Assembly: GCA_963825525.1 (NCBI GenBank)
Contig: CAWGTN010000002.1
Coordinates: forward strand, 1,408,001 to 1,472,000
Source of the DNA: an uncultured Chloroflexia bacterium
GTDB taxonomy: Bacteria; Chloroflexota; Limnocylindria; QHBO01
Direction of reading: 5' to 3'
DNA: 64,000 nt
Shown: positions 16,532 to 45,644 of the stretch, piece after piece
Layout of the letters: each line of letters begins with the position of its first letter
Numbering within the stretch: the first letter of the stretch is position 1
Notes under the pieces: generated by a model
The model's input: only the letters and a program-made list of their open reading frames with translations
Databases searched by the model: none
What the model was told of the DNA's origin: nothing
Made by a program: the position numbers and the translations under genes

Positions 16532-16545
16532 TAGTGTCACCGCCG

Positions 16546-22647: not shown

Positions 22648-22660
22648 GGAGGAGATTCCC

Positions 22661-23864: not shown

Positions 23865-24050
23865 ATGGTCAAGCACTTCATCAGCACTCTTCTGGCTCGT
23901 TTCCAGAGCGAGGACGAGGAAGGTCAGACTCTCGTTGAGTACGGTCTGCTTCTCGCCCTCATCGCGATCATCGTGATCGTCGCCCTGCTGTTCCTGGGCC
24001 CGATCGTCAGCCAGCATCTTCAGCAACGTCGCGCGAACCAGCTCACGTAG
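23865..24050 (+). CDS. flp: Flp/Fap (type IVc) major pilin
   Basis: AGGAGG RBS; EEG|QTLVEYGLLLALIAIIVIV prepilin motif; C-terminus appears locally frameshifted. Confidence 0.92.
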   Translation: MVKHFISTLLARFQSEDEEGQTLVEYGLLLALIAIIVIVALLFLGPIVSQHLQQRRANQLT

Positions 24051-28923: not shown

Positions 28924-29849
28924 TGCAGATGCCCCCCGAGATCATCATCGCCATCCTGGCCGCAGGCGCCGTCCTGCTGATCACCTACGGCGTCGCGGCG
29001 CGCCCGATCCGAGGATGCCGTCCAGGCACGCCTCTCGCAGCTCGTGGTCCAGCCGCGCACCGTCGAGGAGATGGAGCTCCAGCAGCCGTTCTACGAGCGC
29101 ATGGTTCGACCCATGATCCAGCGCCTGGCTCGTGCCGGTCGCCGCCAGGAAGGCGGCATGATCCAGCGCGTCGACGCGAAATTGGAGAGGGCCGGCTATC
29201 CCGGCGGCCTGCGCGGCGCCGACTGGATCGGCGTGAAGCTCATGTCGGCCATCGGCTTCGCCGTCGATCTTCTTCCTGCTCGGCACGTTCGTCCTCGGCT
29301 CGCCGGTCCTCGGCCTGCTGATGATCGCGGTCGGCGGGGCGGTCGGCTTCATCGCTCCCGAGTTCTGGCTCGGGCAAGAAGGCCGCCGCCCGATCGATGG
29401 CCATGGTCCTCCAGCTGCCGGACGCCCTCGACCTCCTGACCATCTCGGTCGAGGCCGGCCTGGGATTCGACGCGGCGCTGGCCAAGGTCGTCGAGAAGAT
29501 GGAGGGCCCGCTGGTCGACGAGTTCCGCCAGGCCCTGGCGGAGGTCCGCATGGGTCGTGCCCGACGTGACGCGCTGCGCGACGTCGCCAACCGCGCCGAT
29601 GCCCAGCCGGTGAGCAACTTCGTCGGCGCCATCGTCCAGGCCGAGCAGCTCGGCGTGCCGATCGCCAAGGTGCTCCAGATCCAGTCGAACCAGCTGCGCA
29701 TCGAGCGCCGGCAGCGAGCCGAGGAGGCCGCCGCCAAGGCGCCGGTCAAGATGCTCTTCCCGATGGTCGGCTGCATCTTCCCCACGATCTTCATCGTCAT
29801 CCTCGGGCCGGCGGTCGTGACGGTCATGGGCGGCGGGACCGGGATCTAG
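28923..29849 (+). CDS. tadC: TadC platform protein (frameshifted)
   Basis: LPDALDLLTISVEAGLGFD and AEEAAAKAPVKMLFP. Confidence 0.9.
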
Positions 29850-29852
29850 CTG

Positions 29853-30567
29853 ATGCTTCCGCCGGTCCGTCCGGCCGTCCTGCTGGTCGACGACGACCTG
29901 ACGCTGCTGTCCGTCCTCTCGCGCCGCGTGAGCCGGGCCGGCTACGACGTCCGCACCGCCAACTCGGGTCGTACGGCGCTCAAGCTGCTCGAGGAGTCGT
30001 GGCCGGCGCTGCTGGTGATCGACCTCATGATGCCCGGCATGGACGGCTTCGAGCTGGCCCGCCGGGTGAAGCAGCTCGCCGACCTGCCGATCATCGTCCT
30101 CTCGGCCGTTGACGGCTCGGAGGCCAAGGTCACCGCGCTCGAGCTGTACGCCGAGGACTACGTCACCAAGCCCTTCGACCCGGACGAGCTCGTGGCCCGC
30201 ATCCAGCGCATCCTGCGCCGCGCCTCGGTCGGCAGCCCCCAGATCTCCCTTGCCGATGGCGACGTGGAGGTCGACCTGGCGACCCGGCGCCTCACCACGC
30301 CGGCCGGCACCCATCAGCTGACGCCGACGGAGGCGCGCCTGCTCCAGGTGCTCGCCTCGTCCGTCGACCGAGTGGTGCCGACCGACGAGCTCCTGAGTCG
30401 CGTCTGGACCGACGCCGATGGCGCCGACCCCTCGTACCTGTGGGTCACCGTCCGGCGCCTGCGCCGCAAGCTCGAGAGCCGATCCGGACCGCCCGCAGCA
30501 CCTCATCACCGAGCGAGGCATCGGCTACCGCCTGACCTCGATCGCGACGCCGGCCACCCGGGCCTGA
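29853..30567 (+). CDS. OmpR/PhoB-family response regulator
   Basis: VLLVDDD, DLMMP and TKPF; winged HTH LTPTE..LRRKLE; ERGIGYR read after a frameshift near 30480. Confidence 0.9.
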
Positions 30568-30572
30568 GCGCC

Positions 30573-32050
30573 ATGCCCCAGCTCGGGCCGTGGCTGCGCG
30601 TCGCCGGCGCATTGCTCCTGGCGGTCCTGCCGCCGCTCCTGCTCCTCACAGCCTCGCTCCTGCTGGCGGAAACCGTGCTCACGAACACGGATCCCAGCCT
30701 CATCGCGGGCTTCGTGGTGCTGACGGCCATCGCCTGGTCGCTGGCCCTGGCCATCGTCTACTCCCGCGGACTGGCGGAGGATGTCCGGTCCCTGCTTGCA
30801 CTGGCCGAACGGGGCGATCGAAGTCCCGATGCGTCGCTGGACGACGCCTACCGGCAGCTTGCCGGCACGCTGGACGAGCGCAACCGGCAGGTCGCCGCCC
30901 TGGCCACCGAATCCGCCCGCGTGCCGATTGATGAGTCCCCGCGCATGGTCGTGGCGGCCGTCGTGGCCTCCGTGCGCGAGGTGACCGGGGACGCCACCTG
31001 GCGTTGCGCGGTCCTGGCGTCGGAGAGCGAGGATCTCCTGCCGCCCGGCACCTACCACGCGCCCGCCGATCCGCTGGACGTGGAGCCGATCAGCGAGCTC
31101 GAGCAATGGGCCGCAGTTGCCGGCTCCCAGGAACCTGCCAGCCGCGTCGAGGGGCCATGGGGCGCCTTCCTGGTCGTCGGCCTTGCCGCCACCGACCGCC
31201 TGCGCGCCATCCTCTACGCCCCGGCCGAGGGCCGGCCGCCACCCACGCCCGCGGAGGTGAACCTCCTGACCCTGGTCGGGCAGCACGCGGCCACCGCGCT
31301 GGATCACTCGCTCCTGTACACGCGGGTGCGCAGCCAGGCGGACGAGCTGGACCGCATGGCCGCTGGTGCAGGCGGACTTCCTGCGCGGCGTGACCCACGA
31401 TCTCCAGACACCACTGACCAGCATCGCCGCGCTGGCCACCGAGATGCGCGCAAACCCGGAGATCCCCGAGCAGTCTCGATCCGACCTCGATGGAATCAGC
31501 CACCAGGCCGAGCGGCTGCGACGCATGGTGAGCCAGCTGCTCGTGGCCTCGCGACTCGAGGCCGGCGTCCTGACCGCCGAGCAGGAGGTCTTCGCGCTCC
31601 CGCCCGTGATCGAACGCACGTGGGCGGCACTGCGGGCGGACCGGCCGTTCGAGCTGGTCGTGGACGGGGCTCCGCACCTTGCGGTTGCCGATCCCGATCG
31701 GCTCGAGCAGGTCCTGTGGGCCACGCTGGACAACGCCGTCAAGTACAGCCCGGAGGGCTCTCCGGTCACGGTGACTGTCCGACCGGATGGAGTGGACCAG
31801 CTCACCATCACGATCAGCGATCGCGGGGTCGGCATGGATGCCGAGACCAGCACCCAGGCCTTTGACCAGTTCTTCCGGGCGAGCCAGGCACGCAAGCTGG
31901 CGCCCGGATGGAAGCGGCGTGGGCCTGTATGCCGCGCGGGGTCTGATGGAGACCATGGGTGGATCGGTCGAGATCGAATCCACCCTGGGCACCGGAACCT
32001 CGGTCGTGCTCCACGTTCCCGCCGAGGCCGCCGAGGACACCGGCGCCTGA
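30573..32050 (+). CDS. membrane sensor histidine kinase (2 TM, GAF-like, HisKA, HATPase; frameshifted)
   Basis: VTHDLQTPLT, DNAVKYS, DRGVG and GSGVGL. Confidence 0.88.
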
Positions 32051-32057
32051 ACACGGA

Positions 32058-32088
32058 ACGAGGGCGGTGCTCCGTGCACCGCCCTCGT
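32058..32088. terminator. hairpin between convergent genes
   Basis: Perfect 13-bp stem ACGAGGGCGGTGC/GCACCGCCCTCGT. Confidence 0.65.
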
Positions 32089-32109
32089 CTCGGTTGATCT
32101 CCGGTTGAG

Positions 32110-33115
32110 CTACCTGGTGAGGCCGATGAAGTTCGTCCTCGAGTAGCAGTCGGATCGGTCCGGTTGCACGGCGGCGTGCCGTATCCGGCCGGGACCCCCG
32201 GCAGCGCGTAGAACTCCACGAAGTGGCCCTGGATCTTCGACGCGTGGATGTCGTACGACGTGAGCGAGAACGCGGCCAGGGTAATGACCTCGTAGTTCAG
32301 GCCGGACCCTCCATGCCCGCCGGTCTGCGTCCAGACCGGGATGAGCACGGTCTCGCCGATCAGCGCATCGAGGCACGCCCGCACTTCACTCTTGTTCATG
32401 TTGCCGGGCGCACCCTCCAGCCACAATGGGAACTCCATGGCGGGGTTGTCCGGGGTGCACATGCTGTTCGCAAGGGTGCCGGCGTCAGTTCGCCCCGCTC
32501 CAGGTCAGGAAACCGAAGTTGCCCGGTCCATGGGTGCCCTCGGTCAGCTCGTACTCGATTCCAGCCTGGTAGTCGGAATCGAACGTGGTGATCGGGAGGA
32601 GGATCCCGGACGGGGCTTCATTGAGGATGCCGGAGGTCATCGCCGTCGCGTCGGTCGCGACATCGACCTTCGAGATGCCGACGACCCGCATGAAGAACGT
32701 GTCGGCCGGAGCTCGAGGTATCCACCCGGATCCCCTGCGCGCCGGCCGGGATCGAGCCCGCATTCGTCACCGCACCGAGGTCGATCTCGATTCCGGGGTT
32801 GGCTCCCGGCTTGACGTACTCGGCCGACCAGTCGCAGCCATCGGCGGCTACGCAGCCATTGTTGACCGTGCTGGCCGCGGTCGCCGTGTAGACGTCCGCG
32901 CCGGTGCGCCCGCCATCCAGGTAATGGTCCGCGATGACCTTGGTCCCTGCCATGGAGGCAAGGTCCGCGACGTTCTGCATCGAGCGCCGCTCGCGATAGC
33001 CGACACCCGTGTCGATCACGAGCCCTGCGATGAGGAGGAAAACGATCATTCCGCCGGCCACCATCACCAGGATCTGGCCGGTCTCGTCGTCTCGGTGACG
33101 AAGTCGATTCCACAT
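32110..33115 (-). CDS. tadG: TadG-like minor pilin, cassette 1 (frameshifted)
   Basis: ETG|QILVMVAGG...IDTG...QNVADLASMAG Tad_N motif. Confidence 0.8.
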
Positions 33116-33174
33116 GGAAGTGATTCCTTTCAGGGTTGAGACCGGCCAAAGAGTCCGGAGGTTGTTGCTGTCCA

Positions 33175-33591
33175 TCAGTTGTTCACGATCGCTTCGGATC
33201 GCGCCTCGAGGTGAAGGGTGCCCACGATCTGGCCGATGATCGGCGTGATCATCGAGAGGTCGGCCTTGGCCTCGACGACCAGGATGTCGTCGACCGTGCA
33301 GCCGTAGGCACCCGCCGCGGTGCAGCTCGCGGTGACGGTTGGATTGCGCACCGCCTCGAGGAGGCTGATGACGTGCGCCTCGACCCCGGCGCGGGTCGTG
33401 TCATCGAAGGCACGCGCCTGGACCGATCCGTACCGAGCGCCTTCGCGTGCCCCCTCGGAGAGGGTGTTGTAGGTGTAGACGGCACGGCCCAGGTCGATCA
33501 GGCCGAAGATGATGAGGAAGAAGATCGGGAGAGCGAGGGCAAGCTCGACCATCGCCTGGCCGCGCCGCCCCTCCTTGCGCTTGCGAATCAT
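33175..33591 (-). CDS. tadE: TadE-like minor pilin, cassette 1
   Basis: RG|QAMVELALALP..IDLGR..AREGAR. Confidence 0.88.
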   Translation of the reverse strand: MIRKRKEGRRGQAMVELALALPIFFLIIFGLIDLGRAVYTYNTLSEGAREGARYGSVQARAFDDTTRAGVEAHVISLLEAVRNPTVTASCTAAGAYGCTVDDILVVEAKADLSMITPIIGQIVGTLHLEARSEAIVNN

Positions 33592-34664
33592 CAGTTGTCC
33601 ACCGTGATCGTTGTGGTGAGGCACGGGCGCAACAGCCCCGCGGTAATGCTCTGCGAGACGACCGTGTAGTCATTGCCCGGCGGTCGCACGGGCGTGAAGT
33701 TCACGGCTGAGAAGCCCGCGCTCGACCATCTTCCCTGGGCTGCGGTGATCGGCACACCCGTGAGTACCGGGACCGTGCACTGGGCGGCCGGCGTGGCAGT
33801 CGGTGACGCGCTCGGCGACGGAGAAGGGGAGGGAGAGCCCGGGCTGGGCGTCGGCGTCGCGGTGGGCACCGGCGTCGGGCTGGGAGTCGGGCTGGGAGTC
33901 GGCGTCGACATCACCGTGCTGGAGACCAGGATCGACTGGGTCAGACACGACCCAACCGTCCCGGCCGGTACGCTCTGCCACACGATGTTCTGCCCGTTGC
34001 CACCATTCGTCGAGAGATTCGCCGCAGAGAATCCCGCGATGGTCGCCCAGACATTCTCGGCGCCGCTGATCTTGGTGGGTCCGGTCGTGAAGTTCGGGAC
34101 CGTACAACTCGACGGTGCCGGCGTTGACGTCGGCGCGGTTGTCGGAATCGGGACCGTGCCGGAACCGGTCTCGAACGAGGTGACGACCACGGCCGTCGAG
34201 GACGAGCTCAGTGTCAGGGTCCCGCCCACCAGTGAACTGATCAGCGGGGTGACGAGCGTGAACGGCGTCTTGCTGGCGACGTAATACAGGTCGCCGTCCT
34301 CGCAGTCCGCAAGCGTCTTGCCCGCACCAGTGAAGACGGTGGTGCCGGGTGCGAAGCACTTGGCAACGAAGCTCTGAAGGGTCAGGCCGTTCAGCTCGAC
34401 CTCGACCCGCGACTCGACGTTATGCGGGTCGACACAGTCAGCCGTGGTCGTTGCACACTCGGGCTCGCGCGCACCGAAGAAGGCCCCTTCCTTGACGGCA
34501 TTCTCGAGGGCCACCGAGGAGAAATAGGCCCTGCCGAGGTCCACGGTGCCGAGCACCAGGACCAGCATGACCGGGAGCAGAAGTGCGAACTCGACGAAGC
34601 TCTGGCCCCGTGCGGATCGCACCCTGGCCGTGAGCTGGGTCAGCGTCGTTCGGATCGAATTCAA
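33591..34664 (-). CDS. tadE: TadE-like minor pilin with two PASTA-like domains and Pro/Thr/Ser linker, cassette 1
   Basis: RG|QSFVEFALLLP; two CTVP...AGF...QS..AG repeats; TTG start inferred. Confidence 0.82.
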   Translation of the reverse strand: MNSIRTTLTQLTARVRSARGQSFVEFALLLPVMLVLVLGTVDLGRAYFSSVALENAVKEGAFFGAREPECATTTADCVDPHNVESRVEVELNGLTLQSFVAKCFAPGTTVFTGAGKTLADCEDGDLYYVASKTPFTLVTPLISSLVGGTLTLSSSSTAVVVTSFETGSGTVPIPTTAPTSTPAPSSCTVPNFTTGPTKISGAENVWATIAGFSAANLSTNGGNGQNIVWQSVPAGTVGSCLTQSILVSSTVMSTPTPSPTPSPTPVPTATPTPSPGSPSPSPSPSASPTATPAAQCTVPVLTGVPITAAQGRWSSAGFSAVNFTPVRPPGNDYTVVSQSITAGLLRPCLTTTITVDN

Positions 34665-34694
34665 GGGGAACCTGCAAATGCGTGATCGATCCCC

Positions 34695-34727
34695 AACGTA
34701 TGGGGCCGACCTTGCGGGGTGCCTTGC
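34695..34727 (-). promoter_or_regulatory. cassette-1 promoter motif GCAAG-N7-GCAAGGT-N8-TACGTT
   Basis: Same spacing as three other copies; 30 nt upstream of the start codon. Confidence 0.72.
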
Positions 34728-34895
34728 GAAGGTCGGAACGATCGGCGTCTGCTGGCAGTACGAAGGTCCCGGCGGTCCGCACCGGACCGACCCGCATGCC
34801 ATCGGAGGCCACAACAGGCCCCGATCACGTGGTGACGCGGCGCACCGGGGCGGACGAGACGCCGGGTCGGCGGACCCGGGACTTCGGTACTGCCT

Positions 34896-34928
34896 GTAAG
34901 CAGTACGGCAAGGTCAATCCGGTAGGTT
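34896..34928 (+). promoter_or_regulatory. cassette-2 promoter motif GTAAG-N7-GCAAGGT-N8-TAGGTT
   Basis: 31 nt upstream of GTG 34960. Confidence 0.72.
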
Positions 34929-34959
34929 GCGAACTGAGACCCGAGATTGAGATTCCGCC

Positions 34960-35943
34960 GTGCACGCCCTACGCAACCTCGCGCGACGCAGCTCGCGCGC
35001 CCAGGCCCTTGCCGAATTCGCCCTCGTCCTGCCCATCATCATCCTGCTTCTCGCGATGGCGATCGACCTTGGCCGCGTGTTCTACGGATGGGTGTCCATC
35101 CAGAACGCGGCCCGCGTCGGCGCGTCCTACGCGGCGTCAAACGCTGATGCGTGGGAGTCGCCGGCGGACGCGACACGGCAGGCCCGCTACGCGACCCTGA
35201 TCCAGAATGACCTCCAGGCACTGAACTGCGCGCTCGGGGCCGTCCCGCCACCGGCCTTCGATGACCTCGACGCCGATGGAACCTACGACACCGGCGAACC
35301 GGTCGCCGTCGCGCTGGACTGCGAGTTCAGCCTCATCACGCCGATCGGCCAGACAATCCTCGGGCCAGTGAACCTCGGAGGGGAGGCGACGTACCCCGTT
35401 CACTACACGGTCGTCACCGCGCTTCCGTCGCCACCTCCACCGCCGCCACCACCGACGTGCACGGTTCCCGGCACCGTCGGCCAGTCCCGGAACACCGCGC
35501 GAAGCCTGTGGACCGGAGCGAGCTTCCAGTCCGGCAATTTGATCGAGACCACGAACGGCAACTTCACAGTCGCCACCCAGAGCCAGACGGCGGGGGCGTC
35601 GATCCCGTGCACGTCATCCATGACGATTTCCCCGGCGGCCGGACCGACGCCGACTCCGGCGGGATGCACCAAGCCGGTGGCCCAGTTCACCGGCACGCCG
35701 ACAGTCGGTAAGTCGACGCTGAACGTTCAGTTCACGGATCAGTCGACGAGCGCAGGTTGCCCGATCCTGTCGTGGAGCTGGAACTTCGACCCAGGGTCCT
35801 CCAGCCTTCAGAGCCCGAGCCACGGGTTCGTCTGGGACGGCAATGGACAGTCGACGAAATTCAAGGTCACCCTCACCGTCACGAACGCCGCCGGGTCTGA
35901 TGTGGAAACAAAGAACAACTACATCCAGGCAAACAAGCCATGA
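34960..35943 (+). CDS. tadE: TadE-like minor pilin with PASTA-like and PKD domains, cassette 2
   Basis: RA|QALAEFALVLP (Ala rather than Gly at -1); poly-Pro linker; CTVP; PVAQF..VQFTDQS..WSWNF (PKD). Confidence 0.85.
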   Translation: MHALRNLARRSSRAQALAEFALVLPIIILLLAMAIDLGRVFYGWVSIQNAARVGASYAASNADAWESPADATRQARYATLIQNDLQALNCALGAVPPPAFDDLDADGTYDTGEPVAVALDCEFSLITPIGQTILGPVNLGGEATYPVHYTVVTALPSPPPPPPPPTCTVPGTVGQSRNTARSLWTGASFQSGNLIETTNGNFTVATQSQTAGASIPCTSSMTISPAAGPTPTPAGCTKPVAQFTGTPTVGKSTLNVQFTDQSTSAGCPILSWSWNFDPGSSSLQSPSHGFVWDGNGQSTKFKVTLTVTNAAGSDVETKNNYIQANKP

Positions 35944-36386
35944 CGCTGATGCGCGGCCGTGATCGCGGTCAGACGATGGTCGAGCTGGCCCTCGTGCTGC
36001 CGCTCCTCATCCTGCTCATCGCCGGGATCTTCGACTTCGGCCGTGCGATTTACGGCTACAACACCGTCATCAATGCGTCGCGCGAGGCCGCACGCGTGGC
36101 CATCGTTCACCAGACGGCCGGCACCATCGAGCAGCGGGCAGTGGACCACGCCGTAGCCCTCGGACTCAGCGCGACCGATGTCTCCATCGACTACCGCACC
36201 GCCGCCGCTCCGGAAACACCGGGCTCATGCGACTCGAGGCTCGGAACCCCCCAGATCGTGGGATGCACCGCCGTTGTTCGTGTCGACTACACCTATGAAG
36301 CCTCGATTCCGATCATCACCGCCCTGGTCGGGTCGATCGACCTGGCCGGCGAAACACGATTCCCCGTGGAGCACAACGCTCCATGA
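35940..36386 (+). CDS. tadE: TadE-like minor pilin, cassette 2
   Basis: RG|QTMVELALVLP..FDFGR..SREAAR. Confidence 0.88.
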   Translation: MTLMRGRDRGQTMVELALVLPLLILLIAGIFDFGRAIYGYNTVINASREAARVAIVHQTAGTIEQRAVDHAVALGLSATDVSIDYRTAAAPETPGSCDSRLGTPQIVGCTAVVRVDYTYEASIPIITALVGSIDLAGETRFPVEHNAP

Positions 36387-37585
36387 CACCCAGGAGACTG
36401 AACCCGATGGACCGATACTTCCGCTCAGGCACCGGCTCGCGATCGCGTGAGGGGCAGGTGCTCGTCATCGTGGCCGCGGGCATGTTCGTGCTCATCGCCA
36501 TGGTCGGGCTGATCATCGACGGCGGCAATGCCCTGGCTCAGCAGCGCCGCGCGCAGAACGCGGCCGATGGGATTGCCATGGCTGGCACCGCGGTCATCCA
36601 GGACTACCTCAGCGACGCGGCAACGCCGCCGACTGCGGGCGACGTGGGGTGCGCCGTTGAGACCGCAGCAGACGCACACGAGATCGACCTCGAGAAGGCC
36701 GAGTTCACGGACTTCAACGGCACCATCGTCGGCCTCGTGCCCGCGTGCGGGTCCGGTGCGGGGATTCCGGCGGGGAGCCAGGGCGTCAAGGGCTCGAGCA
36801 CCGAGGACTTCGAGACGTTCCTCATGCGTGCGGTCGGTTTCGGCACCATGACGACGAAGGCGAATGCCACCGCTGTTGTGGGAACACCGTCCGGCGTGTG
36901 CCCGGCCAGTGCCGGGTGCGGCGTGCTCCCGGTCACCTTCCCGCGCACGATCGACACCTGCGACGGGACGAACACCGGGATCGTCGGCGAGGACGAGTGG
37001 GAGATACTGGACGAGGACGCGGTGCTGGATAGCAGCAATCTCGCCATCGTTCCGCTCTGCAAGAAGGCACCGGGCGCCACCGGCTGGCTGGACTTCGGAT
37101 GCGGCAACCTCGCAGACCACATCACGAACCCGTGCAACCAGTACATCAACATCCCGGCATGGCTTCACACCAGCCCGGGCAACCCGAACTGCTGCGAGAA
37201 CCAGCTGAATGCGTACGCGGGCTCGTCGCCCGGCGTTGCCGAAACGGCCGACCAGGTCCTCTACGTCCCGATCCACGACAACACGTGCGGCACCAAGCCG
37301 GCGGACTCCGACCCCGTCTGCCCGGGCGGCAATTGGACCGGTGGAGGTGACCTCCTCCATTACCACATCCCGTATTGGGTCGGATTCAAGCTCGATGGCG
37401 CATTCACCCAGGGGAGTGACGTCGAGTGCAACGAACTCCCGGGCACGCCGTTTTCGGGTGGCAACGGGGCCACCGGCTGCCTGAAGGGATGGTTCGTCTC
37501 GAAGGTCACCGCCCCCGGACCAATCAGTACCGTGGTGATCAACCCCGGAGATCCGGTGGCCCTGGCCATCGCCCTGATCGACTAG
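36383..37585 (+). CDS. tadG: TadG-like Cys-rich minor pilin, cassette 2
   Basis: EG|QVLVIVA..IDGG..AQNAADGIAMAG. Confidence 0.83.
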   Translation: MTPRRLNPMDRYFRSGTGSRSREGQVLVIVAAGMFVLIAMVGLIIDGGNALAQQRRAQNAADGIAMAGTAVIQDYLSDAATPPTAGDVGCAVETAADAHEIDLEKAEFTDFNGTIVGLVPACGSGAGIPAGSQGVKGSSTEDFETFLMRAVGFGTMTTKANATAVVGTPSGVCPASAGCGVLPVTFPRTIDTCDGTNTGIVGEDEWEILDEDAVLDSSNLAIVPLCKKAPGATGWLDFGCGNLADHITNPCNQYINIPAWLHTSPGNPNCCENQLNAYAGSSPGVAETADQVLYVPIHDNTCGTKPADSDPVCPGGNWTGGGDLLHYHIPYWVGFKLDGAFTQGSDVECNELPGTPFSGGNGATGCLKGWFVSKVTAPGPISTVVINPGDPVALAIALID

Positions 37586-37845
37586 CCGCGCCGGGCCGGG
37601 CCAAAATCCGCCCGGCCACTCGGCAGCCCAGTCTCTCCGTGCGCCGCGCAACCCATTTTGGGTGGCGCGGCGTTCTGGCGTCCCGCGGCGATTCGCCACC
37701 GCTAACCCTGCGAGACACCTCAGATCGCCAGGTCCCCTAACAAGATTCAGTGTTGTGCGTTGTCGCAGAGCGTGTACTGTCACAACGGATACCGCCGAAC
37801 TTCGTTAGGGTCCGTGTTGCCACAATGCACCGAGATTCGTGGTTT

Positions 37846-37878
37846 GCAAGGTCAGCTGCAAGGTTGAATGCCTACATT
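37846..37878 (+). promoter_or_regulatory. cassette-3 promoter motif GCAAG-N7-GCAAGGT-N8-TACATT
   Basis: 8 nt upstream of ATG 37887, a near-leaderless arrangement with no RBS. Confidence 0.72.
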
Positions 37879-37886
37879 CGCGAGCG

Positions 37887-38774
37887 ATGACACGAGAATC
37901 TGAACCCGGCGCGACATCGGCCGCCCGCCGCGGCCAGGCCCTGGTCGAGCTTGCCCTGATCGCCCCTGTCCTGCTGCTCCTGCTCATCGGAGCGATTGAC
38001 CTGGGCCGCGTCTGGCAGTCACAGATCACCATCAACAATGCCGCCCGCGAAGGCGCGATGGAAGGGATCTTCCAGCCGAACTCATTCATCGCCGGTACGG
38101 CGTGCACCTCGGCCAACCAGGACTCGAACCGGATCATGTGCCGGGTCGTGAACGAGGTACGCGACTCGAGCATCACCGTGACCCCGGCAGACGTGGCGAA
38201 GTCCTGCAGCCCGTCGTGCACGCCGGGCAGCGTGGGCGCCCCGAGCACGTTGACGGTGACCGTTACGGGCCACTTCTCCCTGCTCACGCCGCTCATGGCC
38301 GTCTTCACCGGTGGCCAGGACATCACCCTCACGGCGGCCGCAGACGCGACGATTGCCATGACCCCGACCGGCGGCCCGGTCGCGACCCCCAGCCCGAGTC
38401 CGAGTCCGACGCCGACGCCGACGCCGACGCCGACTCCGACAGGCAGCCCGGGCCCGTCACCGACGCCAACCGCAACGGCAAGCCCAACGCCCCCACCGCA
38501 ACCGTGTGTGGCCCCGGTTGCGAATTTCAGCGTCAGTCCGGCCACGGGCAAGAAGAAGAAGACCGACTTCGCATTCACCGATTCTTCGACGAACATGGCG
38601 AACCCGGCCTGCAACCGGATCTGGTCGTGGAACTTCGGCGACGGAACCGGTGCTTCCTCGTCGCAGAACACCGTCCATCAGTACGACTCGGCGGGCACCT
38701 ACACGATCACCCTGTCGGTATCCAACAGCGCCGGCACCTCGACGTTCCAGCGGTCGGTCATTGTCACGCAGTAA
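37887..38774 (+). CDS. tadE: TadE-like minor pilin with (PT)n linker and PKD domain, cassette 3
   Basis: RG|QALVELALIAP; PVANF..FTDSS..WSWNFGDG..HQY..AGTYTITL. Confidence 0.87.
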   Translation: MTRESEPGATSAARRGQALVELALIAPVLLLLLIGAIDLGRVWQSQITINNAAREGAMEGIFQPNSFIAGTACTSANQDSNRIMCRVVNEVRDSSITVTPADVAKSCSPSCTPGSVGAPSTLTVTVTGHFSLLTPLMAVFTGGQDITLTAAADATIAMTPTGGPVATPSPSPSPTPTPTPTPTPTGSPGPSPTPTATASPTPPPQPCVAPVANFSVSPATGKKKKTDFAFTDSSTNMANPACNRIWSWNFGDGTGASSSQNTVHQYDSAGTYTITLSVSNSAGTSTFQRSVIVTQ

Positions 38775-39210
38775 GTCGTTGCGCGCCAAGCCAGCGCACA
38801 GCGAGAAGGGCCAGGCGATGGTCGAGTTCGCCCTCACGGTCGTCATCTTCATCGGCCTCCTGCTGGGCGTGCTCGATTTCGGCCGAGCGATCTTCATGTC
38901 GAACGGCGTCGCCGAGGCGGCGCGCGAGATCGCCCGCGTTGCGAGCGTGCATCCGGGGAACCCGATCTCGAACCCATCAGCCGATACCCAGCAGGTGATC
39001 GCGGGGCAGCGCAGCATCATCTTCGATCTCGCGAACCCGACGATGACGTGCGTCGACATCACCGGCCAGCCAGCTGCCACCCCGACCGGTGCCTGCCTTC
39101 CCGGCAATTGGGTGAAGGTCGAGATCCACGCTCCCTACAGCCCGGTGACACCAATCTTCAACCTGATGGCCATCGACCTCGAGTCGACCAGCAGCGTGCA
39201 AATACCGTGA
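38761..39210 (+). CDS. tadE: TadE-like minor pilin, cassette 3
   Basis: KG|QAMVEFAL..LDFGR..AREIAR; start approximate. Confidence 0.85.
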   Translation: MSRSKSLRAKPAHSEKGQAMVEFALTVVIFIGLLLGVLDFGRAIFMSNGVAEAAREIARVASVHPGNPISNPSADTQQVIAGQRSIIFDLANPTMTCVDITGQPAATPTGACLPGNWVKVEIHAPYSPVTPIFNLMAIDLESTSSVQIP

Positions 39211-39230
39211 AGTCAGAGGTACGCCCAGCC

Positions 39231-40170
39231 ATGCATCCCGAATTTGCCGATGGAGACCGAGAGCGCGGGCAGATCCTCGTCATCTTTGCTCTCGCGCTCG
39301 TCGCGATCGTCGCCATGGTGGGCCTGGTGATCGACGGCGGTTCGGCCTTCGCCCAGCGCCGTTCACAGCAGAACGGTTCGGACCTTGCGGCCATGGCCGG
39401 CGCGAACACCTACCTGCTTACGAACAGCAACGCGTCGACGATCAGTGCGGCCCGAGAGGTTGCCCGCCAGAACGGGTGGGAGCACGGCGTCGGCGGTGTC
39501 GTCGTCAATGTGAGCATCGACACGTCCAACGGGGCGGCCGTCACGGTCGAGGTCGACGCCCCACACGACAACTACTTCGGCGGCATCGTCGGGTTCGACA
39601 CGATGGATGTTGGCACCACTGCCACCGCGGTTGGTGGTTTCCCCGATACCGTGGAGGGCGCGGCGCCGATGATCTTCAGCATCGACGCATTCAACGCCGA
39701 TGGTTCGCCGAAAGCAGCCTACGGGAACTCCGGCGCCCCATTTGCGTTCGGCGAGACGAACGGAGACGTGCCCACAGGACCTGGTGATCTTGCGTGGACG
39801 AACTACGGGACCGGCAATGTCAATACGAACGACGTCCGACAGATCATCCGAGGCAACCTCGTCATCAATAAGACGCTCGACATTCGGTGAGTACATCGGT
39901 CAGCACAACAACGGCAATCACACCGCGCTGTTCGGCGAGGTGAACTCCTACCTGGCGGGCATGGACGTCCCGGTCCCCGTCGTTGATCACAACGGCAATT
40001 TCCAGGGGTGGGCTACGTTCCACATCGTCTCGGCGTCGGGTGGCAGCGCGAAGGATGTCGTCGGGTATTTCAAGAGCTCGTTCGTGAGCCAGCGGCTGTC
40101 GATCGGCGGCTGCGCGGCAAATGACTGCCCGCGCTACCTGGGTTCGTACGTCCTCAAGCTCACCGACTGA
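39231..40170 (+). CDS. tadG: TadG-like minor pilin, cassette 3 (frameshift near 39885)
   Basis: RG|QILVIFAL..IDGG..QNGSDLAAMAG. Confidence 0.83.
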
Positions 40171-40197
40171 CGCCAAGGGAACAGTCCCGACAACGCC

Positions 40198-40225
40198 AAA
40201 GCCGGTCGAGGAATCGACCGGCTTT
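40198..40225 (+). terminator. Rho-independent terminator after cassette 3
   Basis: AAAGCCGGTCGA-GGAA-TCGACCGGCTTT perfect stem. Confidence 0.8.
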
Positions 40226-40432
40226 CGCTTGCGTCCGTCTTGCTCAGGGAGCACGCAAGCCAACGCACGCCGCACCAGGTTTGTTACTGGCAGCGACGTG
40301 CGCCACAAGTACTGCGACGGACCCCACGCGACCCGACCGCCGCGCCACAGACCCCACGCGTCGCGAGCTCGTTTGGCCGTCGATTTTCCTATCGCTTGCT
40401 CGGTACAGGCTGCCTACGGTGCACCTCAGATG

Positions 40433-40465
40433 GCAAGCAAGACCGCAAGGTGGCGGGCATAGCCT
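40433..40465 (+). promoter_or_regulatory. cassette-4 promoter motif GCAAG-N7-GCAAGGT-N8-TAGCCT
   Basis: 29 nt upstream of GTG 40495. Confidence 0.72.
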
Positions 40466-40494
40466 CAGGGCATCTACCTTTTCAGGAGCCAGGC

Positions 40495-41118
40495 GTGCAG
40501 ACGATCGTTCGATTTCGGAGCCAGCGAACCCGGGACGGTGTCCGGTCCGAGCGTGGACAGTCCGCCGTCGAGTTCATCCTGGTCTTCCCGATCTTCATCC
40601 TGATCATCATCGGCCTCATGGAGTTCAGCCTGGCGTTCAACGCGCTCATCGGCGTGAACTTCGCCAGCCGCGACGCGGCACTCCTGGCCGCCGAGGCCGC
40701 CGCCGACGCGGGCGCCGATTGCGTGATCCTGAAGAGCGTGGAGTCGGACATCAACGCGCCGGCCGACCGCGACCGAATCACCGAGGTCCGCGTCTACTGG
40801 GCCACCGACACCGGGGCCATGATGCCCGGCAACCCGGTCAACGTGTACCGCCGGACGGGCAGCACCACCTGCACGACGCCCGGCGGATCGATCATCACGG
40901 TTCCGTACTCCCTGGTCGGTGTGGCCGGCTACCCGGTGAGCATCCGCTGCGACGTCATCGGCGGCTGCGGCGGCTCCCATGACACGGTCGACACGATTGC
41001 CGTCCAGGTCCGGTACACCCACGTCTGGGCCACGCCGCTGGCCCGGCTCGTGTCGCTGGGCGGCACAGGGTTCTCGTTCGAGCACACCAACGCCATGCGC
41101 ATGGAGCCATCGCTGTGA
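40495..41118 (+). CDS. tadE: TadE-like minor pilin, cassette 4
   Basis: AGGAG RBS; RG|QSAVEFILVFP..ASRDAA. Confidence 0.85.
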   Translation: MQTIVRFRSQRTRDGVRSERGQSAVEFILVFPIFILIIIGLMEFSLAFNALIGVNFASRDAALLAAEAAADAGADCVILKSVESDINAPADRDRITEVRVYWATDTGAMMPGNPVNVYRRTGSTTCTTPGGSIITVPYSLVGVAGYPVSIRCDVIGGCGGSHDTVDTIAVQVRYTHVWATPLARLVSLGGTGFSFEHTNAMRMEPSL

Positions 41119-41705
41119 GAGCCCTTCTCGCGCACCGCTACCGGCGCGACGCTCGCGGCCAGTCGCTGGTCGAGATGATCCTCATCCTCCCCGTGCTGCT
41201 CATGCTCACCATGGGCACGCTCGAGTTCGGCTTCGCGTTCGATCATCACATCACCCTCGAGTACGCGAGCCGCGAGGGCGCCCGCACCGGAGCTGCCCTC
41301 TCGAACGGTGCCGGCGACGCAACCCGCTGCGCAGCCATCGATCCGCAGATCATTGCTGCGGTCCAGCGCGTCCTCGACAGCCCGAGCTCATCGGTCGACC
41401 TGGCGGAGGTCCCCGAGGTTCGGATCTTCCGTGCCGGAACCAACGGGCAGGAGCTGGGACCCGTGAACCGATGGCGGTACGCCCCCGGCGCCGGCCCGAC
41501 CGTTGACGGGCAGCGACTCGACTTCGTCGAGGTCTCTGCCAGCTGGCCGGCGTGCTCGCGCCTCAGCCAGCCCAACCCGGATTCGATCGGGGTCAGCCTG
41601 ACCTACACCTACCGCTTCCAGACGCCGATGACCGGCCTGCTCGGAATGGCATCTATCAACATGGGCGACAAGACGGTCATGCCGCTCGCGCCCACGGACT
41701 ATTGA
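41115..41705 (+). CDS. tadE: TadE-like minor pilin, cassette 4
   Basis: RG|QSLVEMILILP..ASREGAR. Confidence 0.87.
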   Translation: MRALLAHRYRRDARGQSLVEMILILPVLLMLTMGTLEFGFAFDHHITLEYASREGARTGAALSNGAGDATRCAAIDPQIIAAVQRVLDSPSSSVDLAEVPEVRIFRAGTNGQELGPVNRWRYAPGAGPTVDGQRLDFVEVSASWPACSRLSQPNPDSIGVSLTYTYRFQTPMTGLLGMASINMGDKTVMPLAPTDY

Positions 41706-41715
41706 GGTCCCGCAC

Positions 41716-43869
41716 ATGACCCCGTCCGCCATCGCGCGCTTCATCCGCCGTCGTCAGCCACCGGTTGTCGAGGGAGGTGCTGAGCGCGCGAGCCGCGGCC
41801 AGATCCTGGTCCTGTTCGCGCTCCTGCTCACCATCCTCATCGGCTTCTCGGCCTTCGTGGTCGACATTGCCTGGATCTGGAGCAACCAGCTCAAGGTCCA
41901 GCGTGCGGCGGACGCAGCGGCACTTGCCGGCGTGGTCAACCTTCCCGGCCAGGTCACGGTGGCATTCAACGACGCGTGGGCCGAGTCGCGAAAGAACGGA
42001 TATCGCAATGGCGTGGGCGGGGTGGTCGTGACCCCGTCGCAGGATCCCGACAACCCTCGGCGCATGCGCGTTCGCGTGTCCGCGCCGGTGAGGACGTTCT
42101 TCATGGGCCTGTTCGGCTGGAGCCAGGTGACCGTCACCCGCGACGCAAGCGCCGACTTCGTGCTCCCGGTGCCGATGGGCAGCCCGCTGAACTACTACGG
42201 CGTCGGCGACTTCCGCACCCTCGTCACCGGATCAGTGACCGATACCGGCGAGCGGGCGGCCACGACGGCGGTCACCCCGAACGGTTGGACGACACCGAAC
42301 GGCGCGCATGCGTCCGGGGGGAGCACCCACGCCAACAACGCGACGGGCGCCAGCCAGGGATACGGGAACTTCGGCATCACGCTGCCCGCCGGCTCCGTGG
42401 TCCGAGGCATCGAGGTGCGGGTCGATGGCCGCTCGACCGACACGGCCGGATGCGCCATCGGCGTTTCGCTATCGGCCAATGGTGGGACGAGCTGGACCGC
42501 TCAGAAGACCCAGAGCCTGACGGGCGCGTTCGCCGTGAGGCGTCTTGGGGGCGCCACCGACATGTGGGGCGGTGTCTGGCTGCCGGCAGGAGTCACGAAC
42601 GGCTCGCTGGTGGTCCGCGTGACCGACGTCGATCCTGGGGCCGCCTGTGTCGACAGCGCTCGCACCGACCTTGATTACCTGAGCGTGAAGGTCTTCTACA
42701 CGGGTCCGCCCACCCAGCAGAACCGGGTGATCACCGCGCCGGACGGCACGGTGCTCGCGAGCCAGGGCTTCTGGGGTGCGATCGAGGGCCAGGGCAGCAA
42801 CCGATCGACCGGCGATGCCTACGCCACCGGCTACAACCCGAATCCCACCTTGAACGCCGACTACGACGCGCGAGGGTACGACTACACCCTGGAGCTGCCG
42901 GCAGGCGGCAAGGTGTCCATCTTCGACCCCACCTTCTGCGCGACGTCCGACGGACCGGGCGGCGGCCACTACGGGTCCGGCGACCACTGGCTGGGCGCAG
43001 CGACGCCCGTGTCCACCTACTTCCAGCTGTGGAACTCGAACGGCACCACGTTCCGGAGCGATGACACGCTGGTGGCCGCGAGTGGCTCCCTGTTCCAGAA
43101 CGAGTACCAGGCCGACCTCATCACCGGCGCGAACTTCAGCGACGGTGCAGAGCCGACGAACCCGACGGACTGCGGCGAGGGCCTGATCACGAACCCGGGC
43201 CAGGGCGGCGCGTACCACAACAAGTGGTGGCAGATGGCCAGCGGACTGGCCGCCGGCGAGTATCGGCTCCAGGTGACGACCACCAATCCCAGTAATCCGA
43301 ACGACAACTGGGACGAGAGCTTCGAGAACATGTGGTCGATCCTGGTCGAGGGCGGCGGCAAGCCGCACATCTTCGGCTCCGGGAAGATGGTGTCCTACGC
43401 CAACATCGAGGCCGGACAGCAGACGTTCTATCTCGCCCAGATCGACCGACAGGCGGGAGCCGGCAAGACGGTCGAGATCAAGCTCTTCGATCCGGGCGAC
43501 GTCGGTCAGAAGGCGTGGATGCAGATCCTTTCGCCGGACGGCAACGCGTACAACCCGGTGACGTTCAGCTACACCGCAGATAACGGGCGATCCGGCACCA
43601 ACGTCACGTGCATCCAGACGTATGGCGGTGGCGGGCCGTCGGCGCCATCCGGCTGCACCAACCTCACGAGCGGTGGATCCCTCTACCAGAACTCGTGGAT
43701 CACGGTCCAGGTGCCACTCTCGTCGAACTACGGGGCGAGCGGCCTCCAGCCGGCGGGCGAGACCGAATCCGGCTGGTGGAAGATCCGGTACACCGTGAAC
43801 AGTGGCAACGACACCACGACCTGGGAGGTCACGATCCGCGGCAACCCGGTCCGCCTGGTCGTTCCCTGA
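41716..43869 (+). CDS. tadG: large TadG-like tip pilin/adhesin (717 aa), cassette 4
   Basis: RG|QILVLFA..VDIA..QRAADAAALAG; long Gly/Thr/Trp-rich beta-type C-terminal region. Confidence 0.85.
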   Translation: MTPSAIARFIRRRQPPVVEGGAERASRGQILVLFALLLTILIGFSAFVVDIAWIWSNQLKVQRAADAAALAGVVNLPGQVTVAFNDAWAESRKNGYRNGVGGVVVTPSQDPDNPRRMRVRVSAPVRTFFMGLFGWSQVTVTRDASADFVLPVPMGSPLNYYGVGDFRTLVTGSVTDTGERAATTAVTPNGWTTPNGAHASGGSTHANNATGASQGYGNFGITLPAGSVVRGIEVRVDGRSTDTAGCAIGVSLSANGGTSWTAQKTQSLTGAFAVRRLGGATDMWGGVWLPAGVTNGSLVVRVTDVDPGAACVDSARTDLDYLSVKVFYTGPPTQQNRVITAPDGTVLASQGFWGAIEGQGSNRSTGDAYATGYNPNPTLNADYDARGYDYTLELPAGGKVSIFDPTFCATSDGPGGGHYGSGDHWLGAATPVSTYFQLWNSNGTTFRSDDTLVAASGSLFQNEYQADLITGANFSDGAEPTNPTDCGEGLITNPGQGGAYHNKWWQMASGLAAGEYRLQVTTTNPSNPNDNWDESFENMWSILVEGGGKPHIFGSGKMVSYANIEAGQQTFYLAQIDRQAGAGKTVEIKLFDPGDVGQKAWMQILSPDGNAYNPVTFSYTADNGRSGTNVTCIQTYGGGGPSAPSGCTNLTSGGSLYQNSWITVQVPLSSNYGASGLQPAGETESGWWKIRYTVNSGNDTTTWEVTIRGNPVRLVVP

Positions 43870-43909
43870 TTTGTCGCCGCGAGTCGCGTGACTCGGGGAT
43901 GATGTCGCG

Positions 43910-44305
43910 GTGAACGAGCAGGCACGCCTGGTACGCGTCGAGAACGTCACCCGTGGCACGACCGTCGCCGACCGTGTGCGGGTCGCCTCGTCGAGTGTCG
44001 ATCGGACCGTTGGGCTGCTACACACTCCGGGCCTCGCGCCGGACGAGGGACTGTGGATCGAGCGAGCCCCGTCCATCCACATGTTCTTCATGCGCTACGC
44101 GATCGACGCGATCTTCGTCGACCGCGCTGGCCGGGTGACCAAGGTCGTGCCGAATCTCCGGCCCTGGAGGGTCGTGCTCTGGGCGCGGGGCGCCCGGGAT
44201 TGCCTGGAGCTCGGCGCCGGCGCCGCGGCCGTCAGCGGGACGGAGCGCGGAGACCAGCTGACCCTGGTGGACGTGGACCGGGACATGGACGAGGGCTCCC
44301 GGTAA
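43910..44305 (+). CDS. DUF192 family protein
   Basis: GLL...GLWI...SIHMFFMRYAIDAIFVD...LEL. Confidence 0.85.
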   Translation: MNEQARLVRVENVTRGTTVADRVRVASSSVDRTVGLLHTPGLAPDEGLWIERAPSIHMFFMRYAIDAIFVDRAGRVTKVVPNLRPWRVVLWARGARDCLELGAGAAAVSGTERGDQLTLVDVDRDMDEGSR

Positions 44306-44350
44306 GCAAGCGGTAATCCCGCGGTACACGCGCCTGGGTCAGCATTCGGC

Positions 44351-45004
44351 ATGGAGTGGCTGCTGGACGTGCTGATGCCGCCGGCGTGCACGGGTTGCGG
44401 ACGTGCCGGCTCGATCATGTGCCAACGCTGCCGCGCGGACATGCGGCCGTTCACGGACCATGCCCCGACCTTCGTGGCGCCGGACGCCGGCGTCGTGGTG
44501 GGTGAGGCGCTGGCGCTGGCCGTCGCGGCGTTCCCGTACGAGGGAGCGCTCCGCCGCGTGCTGGCAGCGCTGAAGTATCGGGGCGCCGCCCGCGTTGCGC
44601 GGCCGCTTGCCGATGCGGCCTTTCCCTCCCTCCGCCATCTCCTCGCGGTCTCCGGGCCCGCCGTGCTCGTGCCGGTGCCCATTCACCCAGGCCGGCAACG
44701 CCAACGCGGTTACAACCAGGCGTCGCTCATCGCCACGCGCCTCGCGGCCCGCGCCGAGATTCCGATGGCCGACCTGCTGACGCGGGCGCACCTCACCGAG
44801 CAGCAGCACCGCCTGACGCGCGCGGAACGAATGAGGAACATGCGTGGCGCCATCACTCCCCGGAAGGGAGCATCGGCTCCGGCCTGCGCGGTCGTGGTCG
44901 ACGACATCCTGACGACCTCGGCCACGCTCGAGGTCTGCGCCGATGCACTCCTCCGCATGGGCGTCCAGCACGTCTACGGGTTCGCCATAGCCCGCGAAGT
45001 CTGA
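44351..45004 (+). CDS. comF: ComF family protein (zinc ribbon + PRTase domain)
   Basis: CTGC..CQRC, RGYNQ and VVVDDILTT. Confidence 0.9.
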   Translation: MEWLLDVLMPPACTGCGRAGSIMCQRCRADMRPFTDHAPTFVAPDAGVVVGEALALAVAAFPYEGALRRVLAALKYRGAARVARPLADAAFPSLRHLLAVSGPAVLVPVPIHPGRQRQRGYNQASLIATRLAARAEIPMADLLTRAHLTEQQHRLTRAERMRNMRGAITPRKGASAPACAVVVDDILTTSATLEVCADALLRMGVQHVYGFAIAREV

Positions 45005-45059
45005 CCTGGTGCTAGCCTAGGAGGCCACCTCGAGACACGCGCAGCGGAGGATTCGGTAC

Positions 45060-45644
45060 GTGAAGACGAACCTGACCGCCCGGAACCTGGAGCTGGATGA
45101 TGAGCTCCGCAGCCAGGTCGAGCGTAAGCTCAAGCGCCTCGACAGGATCACCCACGAGTCCGCGGAGGCCGATGTCGAGCTCATCGCCAACGCCTCACAC
45201 GCCAACGACGCATCCCAGGTCGCCGAGGTGACGCTGCGCAACAACGGAGACCTCCTGCGCTCGACGGCCGCCGGCGCGTCCCCCATCGCCGCCCTCGACG
45301 TGGTGCTGGACAAGCTCGAGCGGCAGGTCGTGCGCATGAAGGAGCGGCCGCGGCGCGTCCGGGAGCGTCATGCCGACGAGGTGGACACTGTCCTCGAGCG
45401 CGAGGCGATCGGCACCGTCGACGGAGACGACGGCGCAGGCGATCGTCCGCTCATCGTGAAGACCAAACGGTTCGCCATGCGGCCGATGTTCGAAGAGGAT
45501 GCCATGGCTCAGATGGAGGAGCTCGGCCACGCTTTCTTCGTCTTCCTGAACGCCGAGAGCGAGAGCGTGGCCGTCCTCTATCGGCGTCGGGATGGATCGT
45601 TCGGGCTCATCGAGCCGGTACTGGATAACGGGAGACCGCGCTGA
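45060..45644 (+). CDS. hpf: ribosome hibernation promoting factor (long HPF)
   Basis: DKLERQ; C-terminal KRF..PM..EDA..QMEELGH.FFVF..VLYRR.DG. Confidence 0.92.
   Translation: MKTNLTARNLELDDELRSQVERKLKRLDRITHESAEADVELIANASHANDASQVAEVTLRNNGDLLRSTAAGASPIAALDVVLDKLERQVVRMKERPRRVRERHADEVDTVLEREAIGTVDGDDGAGDRPLIVKTKRFAMRPMFEEDAMAQMEELGHAFFVFLNAESESVAVLYRRRDGSFGLIEPVLDNGRPR

Follow-up and report, generated by a model that had tools for sequence, protein, structure and literature searches.

A spaced direct repeat before the Tad pilus-tip cassettes of an uncultured Chloroflexia bacterium, and an OmpR-type response regulator as its best-supported candidate binder

In the 64,000-nt stretch of DNA analysed here (the window; contig CAWGTN010000002.1 of an uncultured Chloroflexia bacterium, positions 1,408,001 to 1,472,000), each of the four tip cassettes of a tad pilus locus is preceded by a copy of the same 33-bp box. 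The box is a heptamer direct repeat, GYAAGGT-N5-GCAAGGT, which has a 12-bp period at every site and whose 3' end lies 8 nt from a TANNNT hexamer. It is a clean, family-wide regulon element that goes far beyond chance expectation, and its motif, invariant geometry, targets, conservation and linkage to a regulator gene are read directly from the genomes. We consider it fairly probable that the boxes are activator-dependent promoters and that their binder is the OmpR-type response regulator encoded at 29853, within the same locus. The four sites in the window are as follows.

Box A, 34727-34695, minus strand: GCAAGGC-N5-GCAAGGT-N8-TACGTT, 30 nt 5' of the TTG start of cassette A
Box B, 34896-34928, plus strand: GTAAGCA-N5-GCAAGGT-N8-TAGGTT, 31 nt 5' of the GTG start of cassette B
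Box C, 37846-37878, plus strand: GCAAGGT-N5-GCAAGGT-N8-TACATT, 8 nt 5' of the ATG of cassette C
Box D, 40433-40465, plus strand: GCAAGCA-N5-GCAAGGT-N8-TAGCCT, 29 nt 5' of the GTG of cassette D

Boxes A and B are divergent and lie 168 nt apart. A preliminary description of this DNA had reported the four sites as identically spaced motifs 30, 31, 8 and 29 nt from the start codons, with unrelated spacers. On re-reading the window, we found the coordinates, the strands and all four distances to be correct, and a column consensus of five sites (these four and one described below) shows nothing beyond the motif. The sequence suggests that the mRNA of cassette C is leaderless, or nearly so.

The pattern is specific to these places. 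Allowing up to one mismatch, it occurs in the window at the four sites only, and 100 dinucleotide-preserving shuffles gave a mean of 0.00 matches and a largest count of 0. The whole assembly (G000; 2.58 Mb, 68.7% G+C, 4 contigs) holds five exact matches, boxes A-D and a site at G000:C2:490215, and all five are intergenic, face a gene and lie 5' of a TadE-TadE-TadG cassette; the genome-wide check proposed in the preliminary description found none at random positions. The fifth site is an independent copy that lay outside the definition of the pattern, yet it stands before the same type of gene. With a position matrix made of the five sites, their own scores are 35.7-39.2 bits, and no other place in the genome exceeds 20.6; the scores of the five are circular, and the gap to the next best is the informative part. 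Spacing counts provide a non-circular test, independent of how the pattern was written. Across the genome, G[CT]AAG-N(k)-GCAAGGT occurs seven times with k=7 and four times with k=10, and no more than once with any other k from 2 to 13. Similarly, GCAAGGT-N(j)-TANNNT occurs six times with j=8, and no more than once with any other j from 3 to 13. The only strongly enriched spacings are k=7 and j=8; the 12-bp period of the repeat and its fixed 8-nt gap to TANNNT, both proposed earlier, are upheld. In a scan with a hand-made matrix we found no weaker sites before flp (about 23868-24050), before cpaB, before the regulator genes or in the rest of the genome, and the earlier remark that flp and cpaB lack the box holds true. 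A consensus scan of 32000-44500 found no canonical sigma-70-type -35/-10 promoter (1.0 was expected) and one terminator-like site.

The genes behind the four boxes form compact three-gene cassettes.

Cassette A, 34664-32618, minus strand: TadE-like gene 34664-33591, TadE-like gene 33624-33175, Tad/TadG-like gene 33175-32618 (Pfam PF07811, PF13400)
Cassette B, 34960-37585, plus strand: TadE+PKD gene 34960-35943, TadE gene 35940-36386, Tad/TadG-like gene 36383-37585 (Pfam)
Cassette C, 37887-39890, plus strand: TadE+PKD gene 37887-38774, TadE gene about 38761-39210, Tad/TadG-like gene about 39207-39890 (the last two starts are uncertain)
Cassette D, 40495-43869, plus strand: TadE gene 40495-41118, TadE gene 41115-41705, Tad/TadG-like gene 41716-43869 (Pfam)

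Consecutive genes with TadE (PF07811) and Tad/TadG (PF13400) N-terminal domains make up five cassettes in the genome. The fifth, an orphan TadE-TadE-TadG cassette at G000:C2:490215-493337 (locus L001:8216-11338), lies ~950 kb from the tad locus beside NfeD/SPFH genes, and its box is 215 nt 5' of its TadE gene, an unusually long leader. Its orthologues in relatives have leaders of 150-290 nt, with a shared word soon after the -10 and a distal repeat that is often GTCAGGT. A sixth TadE-like gene, which has a TadG-like neighbour and directly follows a helicase-like gene (G000:C2:173506-174260, minus strand), is without a box; thus, the box is found at 5 of the 6 TadE loci of the genome. Single TadE genes like this last one are present as remnants in several relatives that have no tad island.

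Conservation of the motif in the promoters of relatives, another check set in the preliminary description, proved to be family-wide. We examined a first sample of 60 relatives together with this genome (61 in total), using the reversed pattern as a control. Of the 36 genomes from the same genus, 26 carry the exact box, as does a single genome from another family, while the reversed control matched once in the 61 genomes. With up to two mismatches, the genus has 83 matches against 11 for the control (hand count of table rows). In the relatives the distal repeat is mostly a full heptamer, giving GYAAGGT-N5-GCAAGGT-N8-TANNNT. In an even draw of 401 genomes from the class, the exact box is found in 95 of 153 genomes of the host's own family (f1), where it is spread over 20 of the 23 sampled genera, in 5 of 137 genomes of family f3, and in none of the 92, 16 and 2 genomes of f2, f4 and f5, which like f3 are sister families; the reversed control matched twice in the 401 genomes. 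The genus and class counts here and below include the unpublished genomes G006 and G034, and the class counts also G116, G125, G151, G185, G271, G344 and G391; dropping the unpublished genomes changes no conclusion.

TadE genes are common in families with few or no boxes (11 of 11 sampled genomes in f2 and likewise in f3), and therefore the box is no necessary companion of TadE genes. In f3, reading the intergenic DNA revealed variants where exact and near pattern searches gave none. The TadE gene that directly follows a ~50%-identical homologue of the OmpR-type regulator has the variant box GTAATGG-N5-GCAAGGA-N8-TACCCT in G046, G054 and G058, and GAGAGGT-N5-GCAAGGT-N8-TACCAT in G048.

The idea of a minor-pilin-centred regulon, advanced in the preliminary description, is borne out at the level of sequence, and the regulon is wider than proposed: it takes in the orphan fifth cassette and, in relatives, a ~150-residue exported protein, an XRE gene and a hairpin RNA. 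In the loci that we examined there are 56 distinct sites with up to two mismatches, which we classed by protein signatures: 23 lie before TadE genes, 12 before the ~150-residue protein, 3 before an XRE orthologue and 18 are unclassified. By eye, the unclassified sites include boxes B and D of this genome, two more genes for the ~150-residue protein, four sites with a long leader of the orphan-cassette type and four with the conserved hairpin behind them. (Loci L009, L017, L035, L040 and L088 come from G006 or G034.)

The ~150-residue protein (for example L062:9949-10395, L071:9258-9740 and L102) combines a membrane anchor at the N terminus with an acidic linker and a C-terminal half that is conserved. 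Among the targets of the box only TadE genes are more frequent, and the genomic context of the gene varies among the relatives. We found no Pfam family for it, and no copy of it in this genome (tblastn, E<=1e-3). In L005, L018 and L104, and more loosely in L068, a conserved stretch of ~90 nt with a perfect 10-bp stem directly follows the box in place of a protein start. This stretch, which was found only in relatives and not in this genome, may be a small RNA or a structured leader under the same control. Neither it nor the orphan-cassette leader matched an Rfam family; the four matches with E<=1 were tRNA elsewhere and noise. The XRE promoter carries a variant box, with a GCAAGGC proximal repeat and TACCTT, in G018, G009, G028 and G356. 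Upstream of the XRE gene in this genome (48430-48575, minus strand), TACCTT and its flank are kept and both heptamers are gone.

We read TANNNT as a -10 element because five targets begin 6-11 nt after it, as would be expected of leaderless mRNAs: the start codon is 8 nt away in cassette C and 6, 7, 10 and 11 nt away in L016, L025, L027 and L012, respectively. A search of sequencing runs found no RNA run with this stretch.

The preliminary description had named the OmpR-type regulator at 29853 as one candidate for the protein that binds the box, and it is now the best supported one, by conserved adjacency and by a shared phylogenetic range. Its gene and that of its partner lie just ahead of the cassettes.

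Response regulator of the OmpR/PhoB family, 29853-30567, plus strand: REC and winged-helix domains (Pfam REC, Trans_reg_C), 4 nt 3' of tadC, last-but-one gene of the tad operon
Partner sensor kinase, 30573-32050, plus strand: transmembrane, GAF, HisKA and HATPase regions, broken in this assembly by 1-nt insertions near 31360 and 31902

Orthologues of the regulator (E<=1e-47) occur in 96 of 153 f1 genomes and 112 of 137 f3 genomes (46-55% identity), and in none of the 92 genomes of f2, 16 of f4 and 2 of f5. The regulator thus shares its family range with the box and its variants, and is therefore favoured as the binder. Among the matches listed, regulator and exact box are on one contig in at least 41 f1 genomes (hand tally), and in 37 of these 41 the box lies within 6 kb downstream of the regulator on the same strand (unpublished G006, G034 and G151 are among the 37). 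The box is ~130 nt after the regulator in seven genomes of genus g19 (G113, G119, G122, G165, G277, G280 and G399); in most other adjacency cases it is about 1.6-2.3 kb after it, right behind the kinase gene. In the remaining four of the 41, the box is on the opposite strand at 4-5 kb (G088 and G208), 13 kb upstream (G007) or 1.3 Mb away (G063). Boxes with up to two mismatches also lie 1.7-2 kb after the regulator in G065, G067 and G069; in G064 and G068 we found none at this threshold near the regulator. In G018, the end of the kinase gene, a box and tadE share one 4.4-kb contig. The closest named public records of the regulator are from a metagenome-assembled genome labelled 'uncultured Chloroflexia bacterium' (68% identity) and one of Thermomicrobiales (48%); from these records the lineage probably belongs to Chloroflexota and not to Actinomycetota. 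The locus of the former (L106) has regulator, kinase and box followed by a TadG-like gene, and among 80 loci around regulator homologues (514 kb) it is the only one with a box at up to two mismatches.

The regulator is an ordinary member of the OmpR/PhoB family. With an intact orthologue as query, the nearest solved structures are RegX3, MtrA, KdpE and PhoP, all full-length matches. Its recognition helix, ADPSY(L/V)WVT(V/M)RRLR(R/Q)K, hardly varies in f1 and f3, in agreement with the conserved proximal half-site of the box. From these sequence comparisons, the OmpR-type regulator is the best candidate binder.

These features suggest that TANNNT acts as a -10, that the effect is activation and that the regulator at 29853 is the binder. 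In the mechanism that we propose, each box would be an activator-dependent promoter with TANNNT as its -10 and no usable -35 hexamer, in whose place the heptamers stand. If transcription starts 6-8 nt after the -10, the heptamers, 12 bp apart, would span about -39 to -21. Bound there as a dimer, a winged-helix activator would recruit or position RNA polymerase; this activator would most likely be the OmpR/PhoB-type regulator at 29853, which the GAF-domain sensor kinase next to it would phosphorylate. A single signal would then turn on all the alternative minor-pilin/tip cassettes together, apart from the box-free flp-tadZABC machinery operon. The distance to the -10 is fixed in about 180 sites, which argues for a stereospecific contact with polymerase, and thus for activation. 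More tentatively, and as a possibility only, we envisage a family-wide pilus-tip regulon in which GAF-sensor kinase and REC-winged-helix regulator form a switch for every Tad minor-pilin/adhesin cassette that is separate from motor and major pilin, and that also controls the ~150-residue protein, the XRE gene and the hairpin RNA, through a SARP-like box centred near -30, 8 bp from the -10, with a 12-bp phase.

Several observations weigh against assigning the box to the OmpR-type regulator. Co-occurrence within f1 is imperfect: in a hand tally of 154 genomes, 73 have both box and regulator, 23 only the box, 24 only the regulator and 34 neither. The discordant cases are partly assembly artefacts (the regulator is in four pieces in G217 and in two in G010, and in G005 the contig ends just past it). 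G018, G065, G067 and G069, whose arrangements are given above, are also among the cases that a closer look reclassified. G356 (8 contigs, 89% complete) has box-bearing cassettes by unrelated genes (MarR, efflux and others) and no regulator orthologue. The box-only genomes G356, G016, G029 and G108 are also without TadA (E<=1e-60); because the machinery half of the island is missing or lost in them, they do not separate regulator from box. No box precedes the tad operon in which the regulator is encoded, and thus there is no signature of autoregulation, and the 12-bp period is longer both than the 11 or 22 bp of SARPs and than the 10-11 bp usual in the OmpR family. Finally, the regulator and kinase genes are frameshifted in this assembly, where they run together as one 670-residue frame. 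Comparison with four orthologues places a 1-nt insertion near 30479 that puts the C-terminal wing of the regulator (ITERGIGYRL) out of frame, and the breaks were located by a GC-frame plot and three-frame translation. We compared contigs of four public metagenome runs over 29700-32300. The extra base at 30479 is missing in 4 of 4 metagenome contigs that cover it (runs X1 and X4), and contigs of X1, X4 and X5 do not have those near 31360/31362 and 31902/31906. Because these contigs lack the extra bases, the frameshifts are probably consensus errors of the assembly, or else private to the strain. The orthologues are intact, with open frames of 236-253 residues for the regulator and ~497 residues for the kinase in G017. 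Other genes in the window also look split (the TadZ region, 25226-26462, and an amine oxidase, 11828-13169), which suggests indel errors in the assembly.

The other candidate regulators and the remaining genes of the locus are as follows.

NarL-type two-component pair (kinase and regulator), 21433-23416: 5' of flp (Pfam); regulator 22592-23416
flp, about 23868-24050
Machinery genes after flp: cpaB-like SAF protein, TadZ-like receiver protein, TadA (26488-27933), TadB and TadC (Pfam)
DUF192 protein, ComF-like phosphoribosyltransferase with a double zinc ribbon, and ribosome hibernation factor (HPF), 43910-45644: 3' of cassette D
XRE gene, 48023-48430, minus strand
SARP-domain protein, G000:C2:1387785-1391138 (locus L086), ~17 kb before the window: ~1,117 residues, with a P-loop STAND NTPase, TPR-like repeats, and a C-terminal OmpR-type DNA-binding domain plus BTAD

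The order DUF192, ComF-like gene and hibernation factor is repeated in G356 and hints at a link between pilus and DNA uptake. Three consecutive genes for GT87-family glycosyltransferases (14640-20016) lie 5' of the tad locus.

A doubtful alternative is that the box is a real activator-dependent promoter bound by another protein: the XRE protein (48023-48430, minus strand), the NarL-type regulator (22592-23416), the SARP-domain protein or an unlinked factor. By its distribution the XRE protein is a plausible binder, and part of its evidence counts against the OmpR-type regulator. Its family range is the same as that of box and regulator (128 of 153 genomes in f1, 135 of 137 in f3, 0 of 110 in f2, f4 and f5), and it is present in more of the box-bearing genomes (both in 85, box only in 11, XRE only in 44, neither in 14; hand tally). 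It is 75-90% identical across f1, in many genomes lies at the tad island's far end, and the variant box in its own promoter in G018, G009, G028 and G356 could reflect autoregulation. However, XRE-type helix-turn-helix proteins usually bind inverted repeats as symmetric dimers, whereas the site here is a direct repeat in fixed register with the -10. The XRE gene is also unlinked from the regulator-box-TadE unit in genus g11 of f3 (~207 kb away in G050), its promoter box has been lost in this genome, and by the hand tally it is present in 44 f1 genomes without an exact box. We rank it below the OmpR-type regulator because of the direct repeat in fixed register, the unlinking in g11 and the 44 box-free f1 genomes.

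The other two named candidates fare worse. The NarL-type regulator is 94-97% conserved in the genus and is encoded ~7 kb 5' of the OmpR regulator, but its orthologues are present in 11 of 11 f2 genomes, which carry TadE (11 of 11) and no exact box. Those 11 sampled f2 genomes have no orthologue of the OmpR regulator, and a single match at up to two mismatches, the level of the reversed control. Since its family range differs from that of the box, the NarL-type regulator is disfavoured as the binder. The NarL-type pair is conserved at 94-97% in the genus, 73-78% in f3 and 59-64% in f2, far above the OmpR-type pair, and for this reason it may control the flp-tad machinery operon. The SARP-domain protein, whose domain order is the reverse of that in large SARPs of the AfsR type, is the sole BTAD protein of the genome, and the 8-bp geometry is a SARP hallmark. 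Yet our search gave no match or a weak one in 14 of 26 box-bearing genomes of the genus, including G018 (95% complete), and it has stop codons in G009 and G016. Its distribution tracks the box poorly, and we rejected it.

A repressor could in principle use the same DNA. The response regulator, or another protein, would lie on the repeats and occlude the -35/spacer region of a promoter that fires from its -10 alone, and a signal would lift the block. Bound at about -39 to -21, such a protein could stand in the way of polymerase, and high-GC Gram-positive bacteria are known to have promoters that consist of a -10 element alone. But repression does not depend on a fixed register with the -10, whereas here the 8-nt gap is invariant in every recovered site and is the sole enriched spacing in the genome. 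The same geometry is, moreover, used by activators with this DNA-binding fold, according to the passages of PMC10936776 on SARP promoters. We consider repression improbable.

Very improbable, in our view, is that an alternative sigma factor reads all 33 bp as its promoter, using one heptamer as the -35. In favour of this, the pattern has two parts at a strict spacing, and the regulon that it marks is small and functionally coherent. However, spacers in promoters of the sigma-70 family are 16-19 nt, and the heptamers lie 8 nt (proximal) and 20 nt (distal) from TANNNT, so that neither fits. An obvious tandem repeat is not needed by sigma factors either, and TANNNT resembles a housekeeping -10. 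Finally, that the repeats are recombination sites that shuffle or invert the tip cassettes like a shufflon is barely credible: the locus offers several tip cassettes as alternatives, cassette A runs opposite to B-D (box A and box B diverge across 168 nt), and cassette order and orientation vary among relatives, but Pfam detected no recombinase domain among the scanned open reading frames of the window, the copies share only 7-12 bases, and the box is also located before unlinked single genes (the ~150-residue protein, XRE) and the orphan cassette, always facing the gene at promoter distance.

For the Tad pilus-tip genes of this uncultured soil lineage, the box provides a precise, testable cis-element, and a few candidate regulators can be named. 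The alternative TadE-TadE-TadG cassettes would be separate transcription units under one signal, which frames how pili may change adhesion. The box is also useful as an annotation tool; in relatives it flagged the ~150-residue exported protein and the conserved hairpin RNA. Moreover, whether a regulator with receiver and winged-helix domains can work from a SARP-like geometry with a 12-bp phase could be asked here in a natural setting. We searched the literature on tad pili, response regulators and direct repeats of actinobacteria, on Tad pili, TadE and two-component systems of Chloroflexota, and for the heptamer itself; among the papers listed, we found neither a description of the box nor one of a 12-bp repeat phase for receiver-domain regulators.

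Among known systems, the closest in layout are OmpR-family activator sites that replace the -35: the Pho box of PhoB in Escherichia coli, the GTAAA-N5-GTAAA site of CpxR, and the hexamer-N5-hexamer sites of PhoP/PmrA. Like them, the box consists of head-to-tail repeats of 5-7 bp, ~5 nt apart, just 5' of a -10 and with the -35 missing. As in OmpR/PhoB-family systems, a REC and winged-helix regulator is encoded with its kinase nearby, and the half-site to which it is predicted to bind begins with GTAA or GCAA. The repeat period in that family is usually 10-11 bp, in contrast to 12 bp here, and the targets here differ in being Tad minor-pilin cassettes.

SARP promoters provide the second comparison. 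As portrayed in the parts of PMC10936776 that deal with them, they carry direct repeats with the 3' copy 8 bp away from the -10, the hallmark of promoters that answer to activators whose DNA-binding domain is of the OmpR type; in Streptomyces, the afs box of AfsR is centred at -29.5 over a poor -35, and SARP repeats are 11 or 22 bp apart. The box shares with these promoters, so far as that account goes, the 8-bp distance of the 3' repeat from the -10 and a predicted centre near -30, over the spacer and a poor -35. It differs in its period of 12 bp rather than 11 or 22, and SARPs, as treated there, have a BTAD and no receiver domain.

Two-component systems beside tad loci are known as well. Excerpts of PMC6821963 and PMC3767616 describe PprA-PprB, located by the flp/tad locus of Pseudomonas aeruginosa, and a tad-adjacent system of Pectobacterium, respectively, as positive regulators of Tad pilus genes. 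Both act, in those excerpts, on flp and the biogenesis genes, whereas the box is confined here to the tip cassettes and a few unlinked genes; the PprB site given in PMC6821963, GGCTAATAC, is unrelated to the box. A further paper on PprA-PprB is PMC3510237. In kind, the box would be a known sort of switch, an activator site that replaces the -35, and it is unusual in its details: the 12-bp phase, the SARP-like placement, and the separation of the tip cassettes from the machinery.

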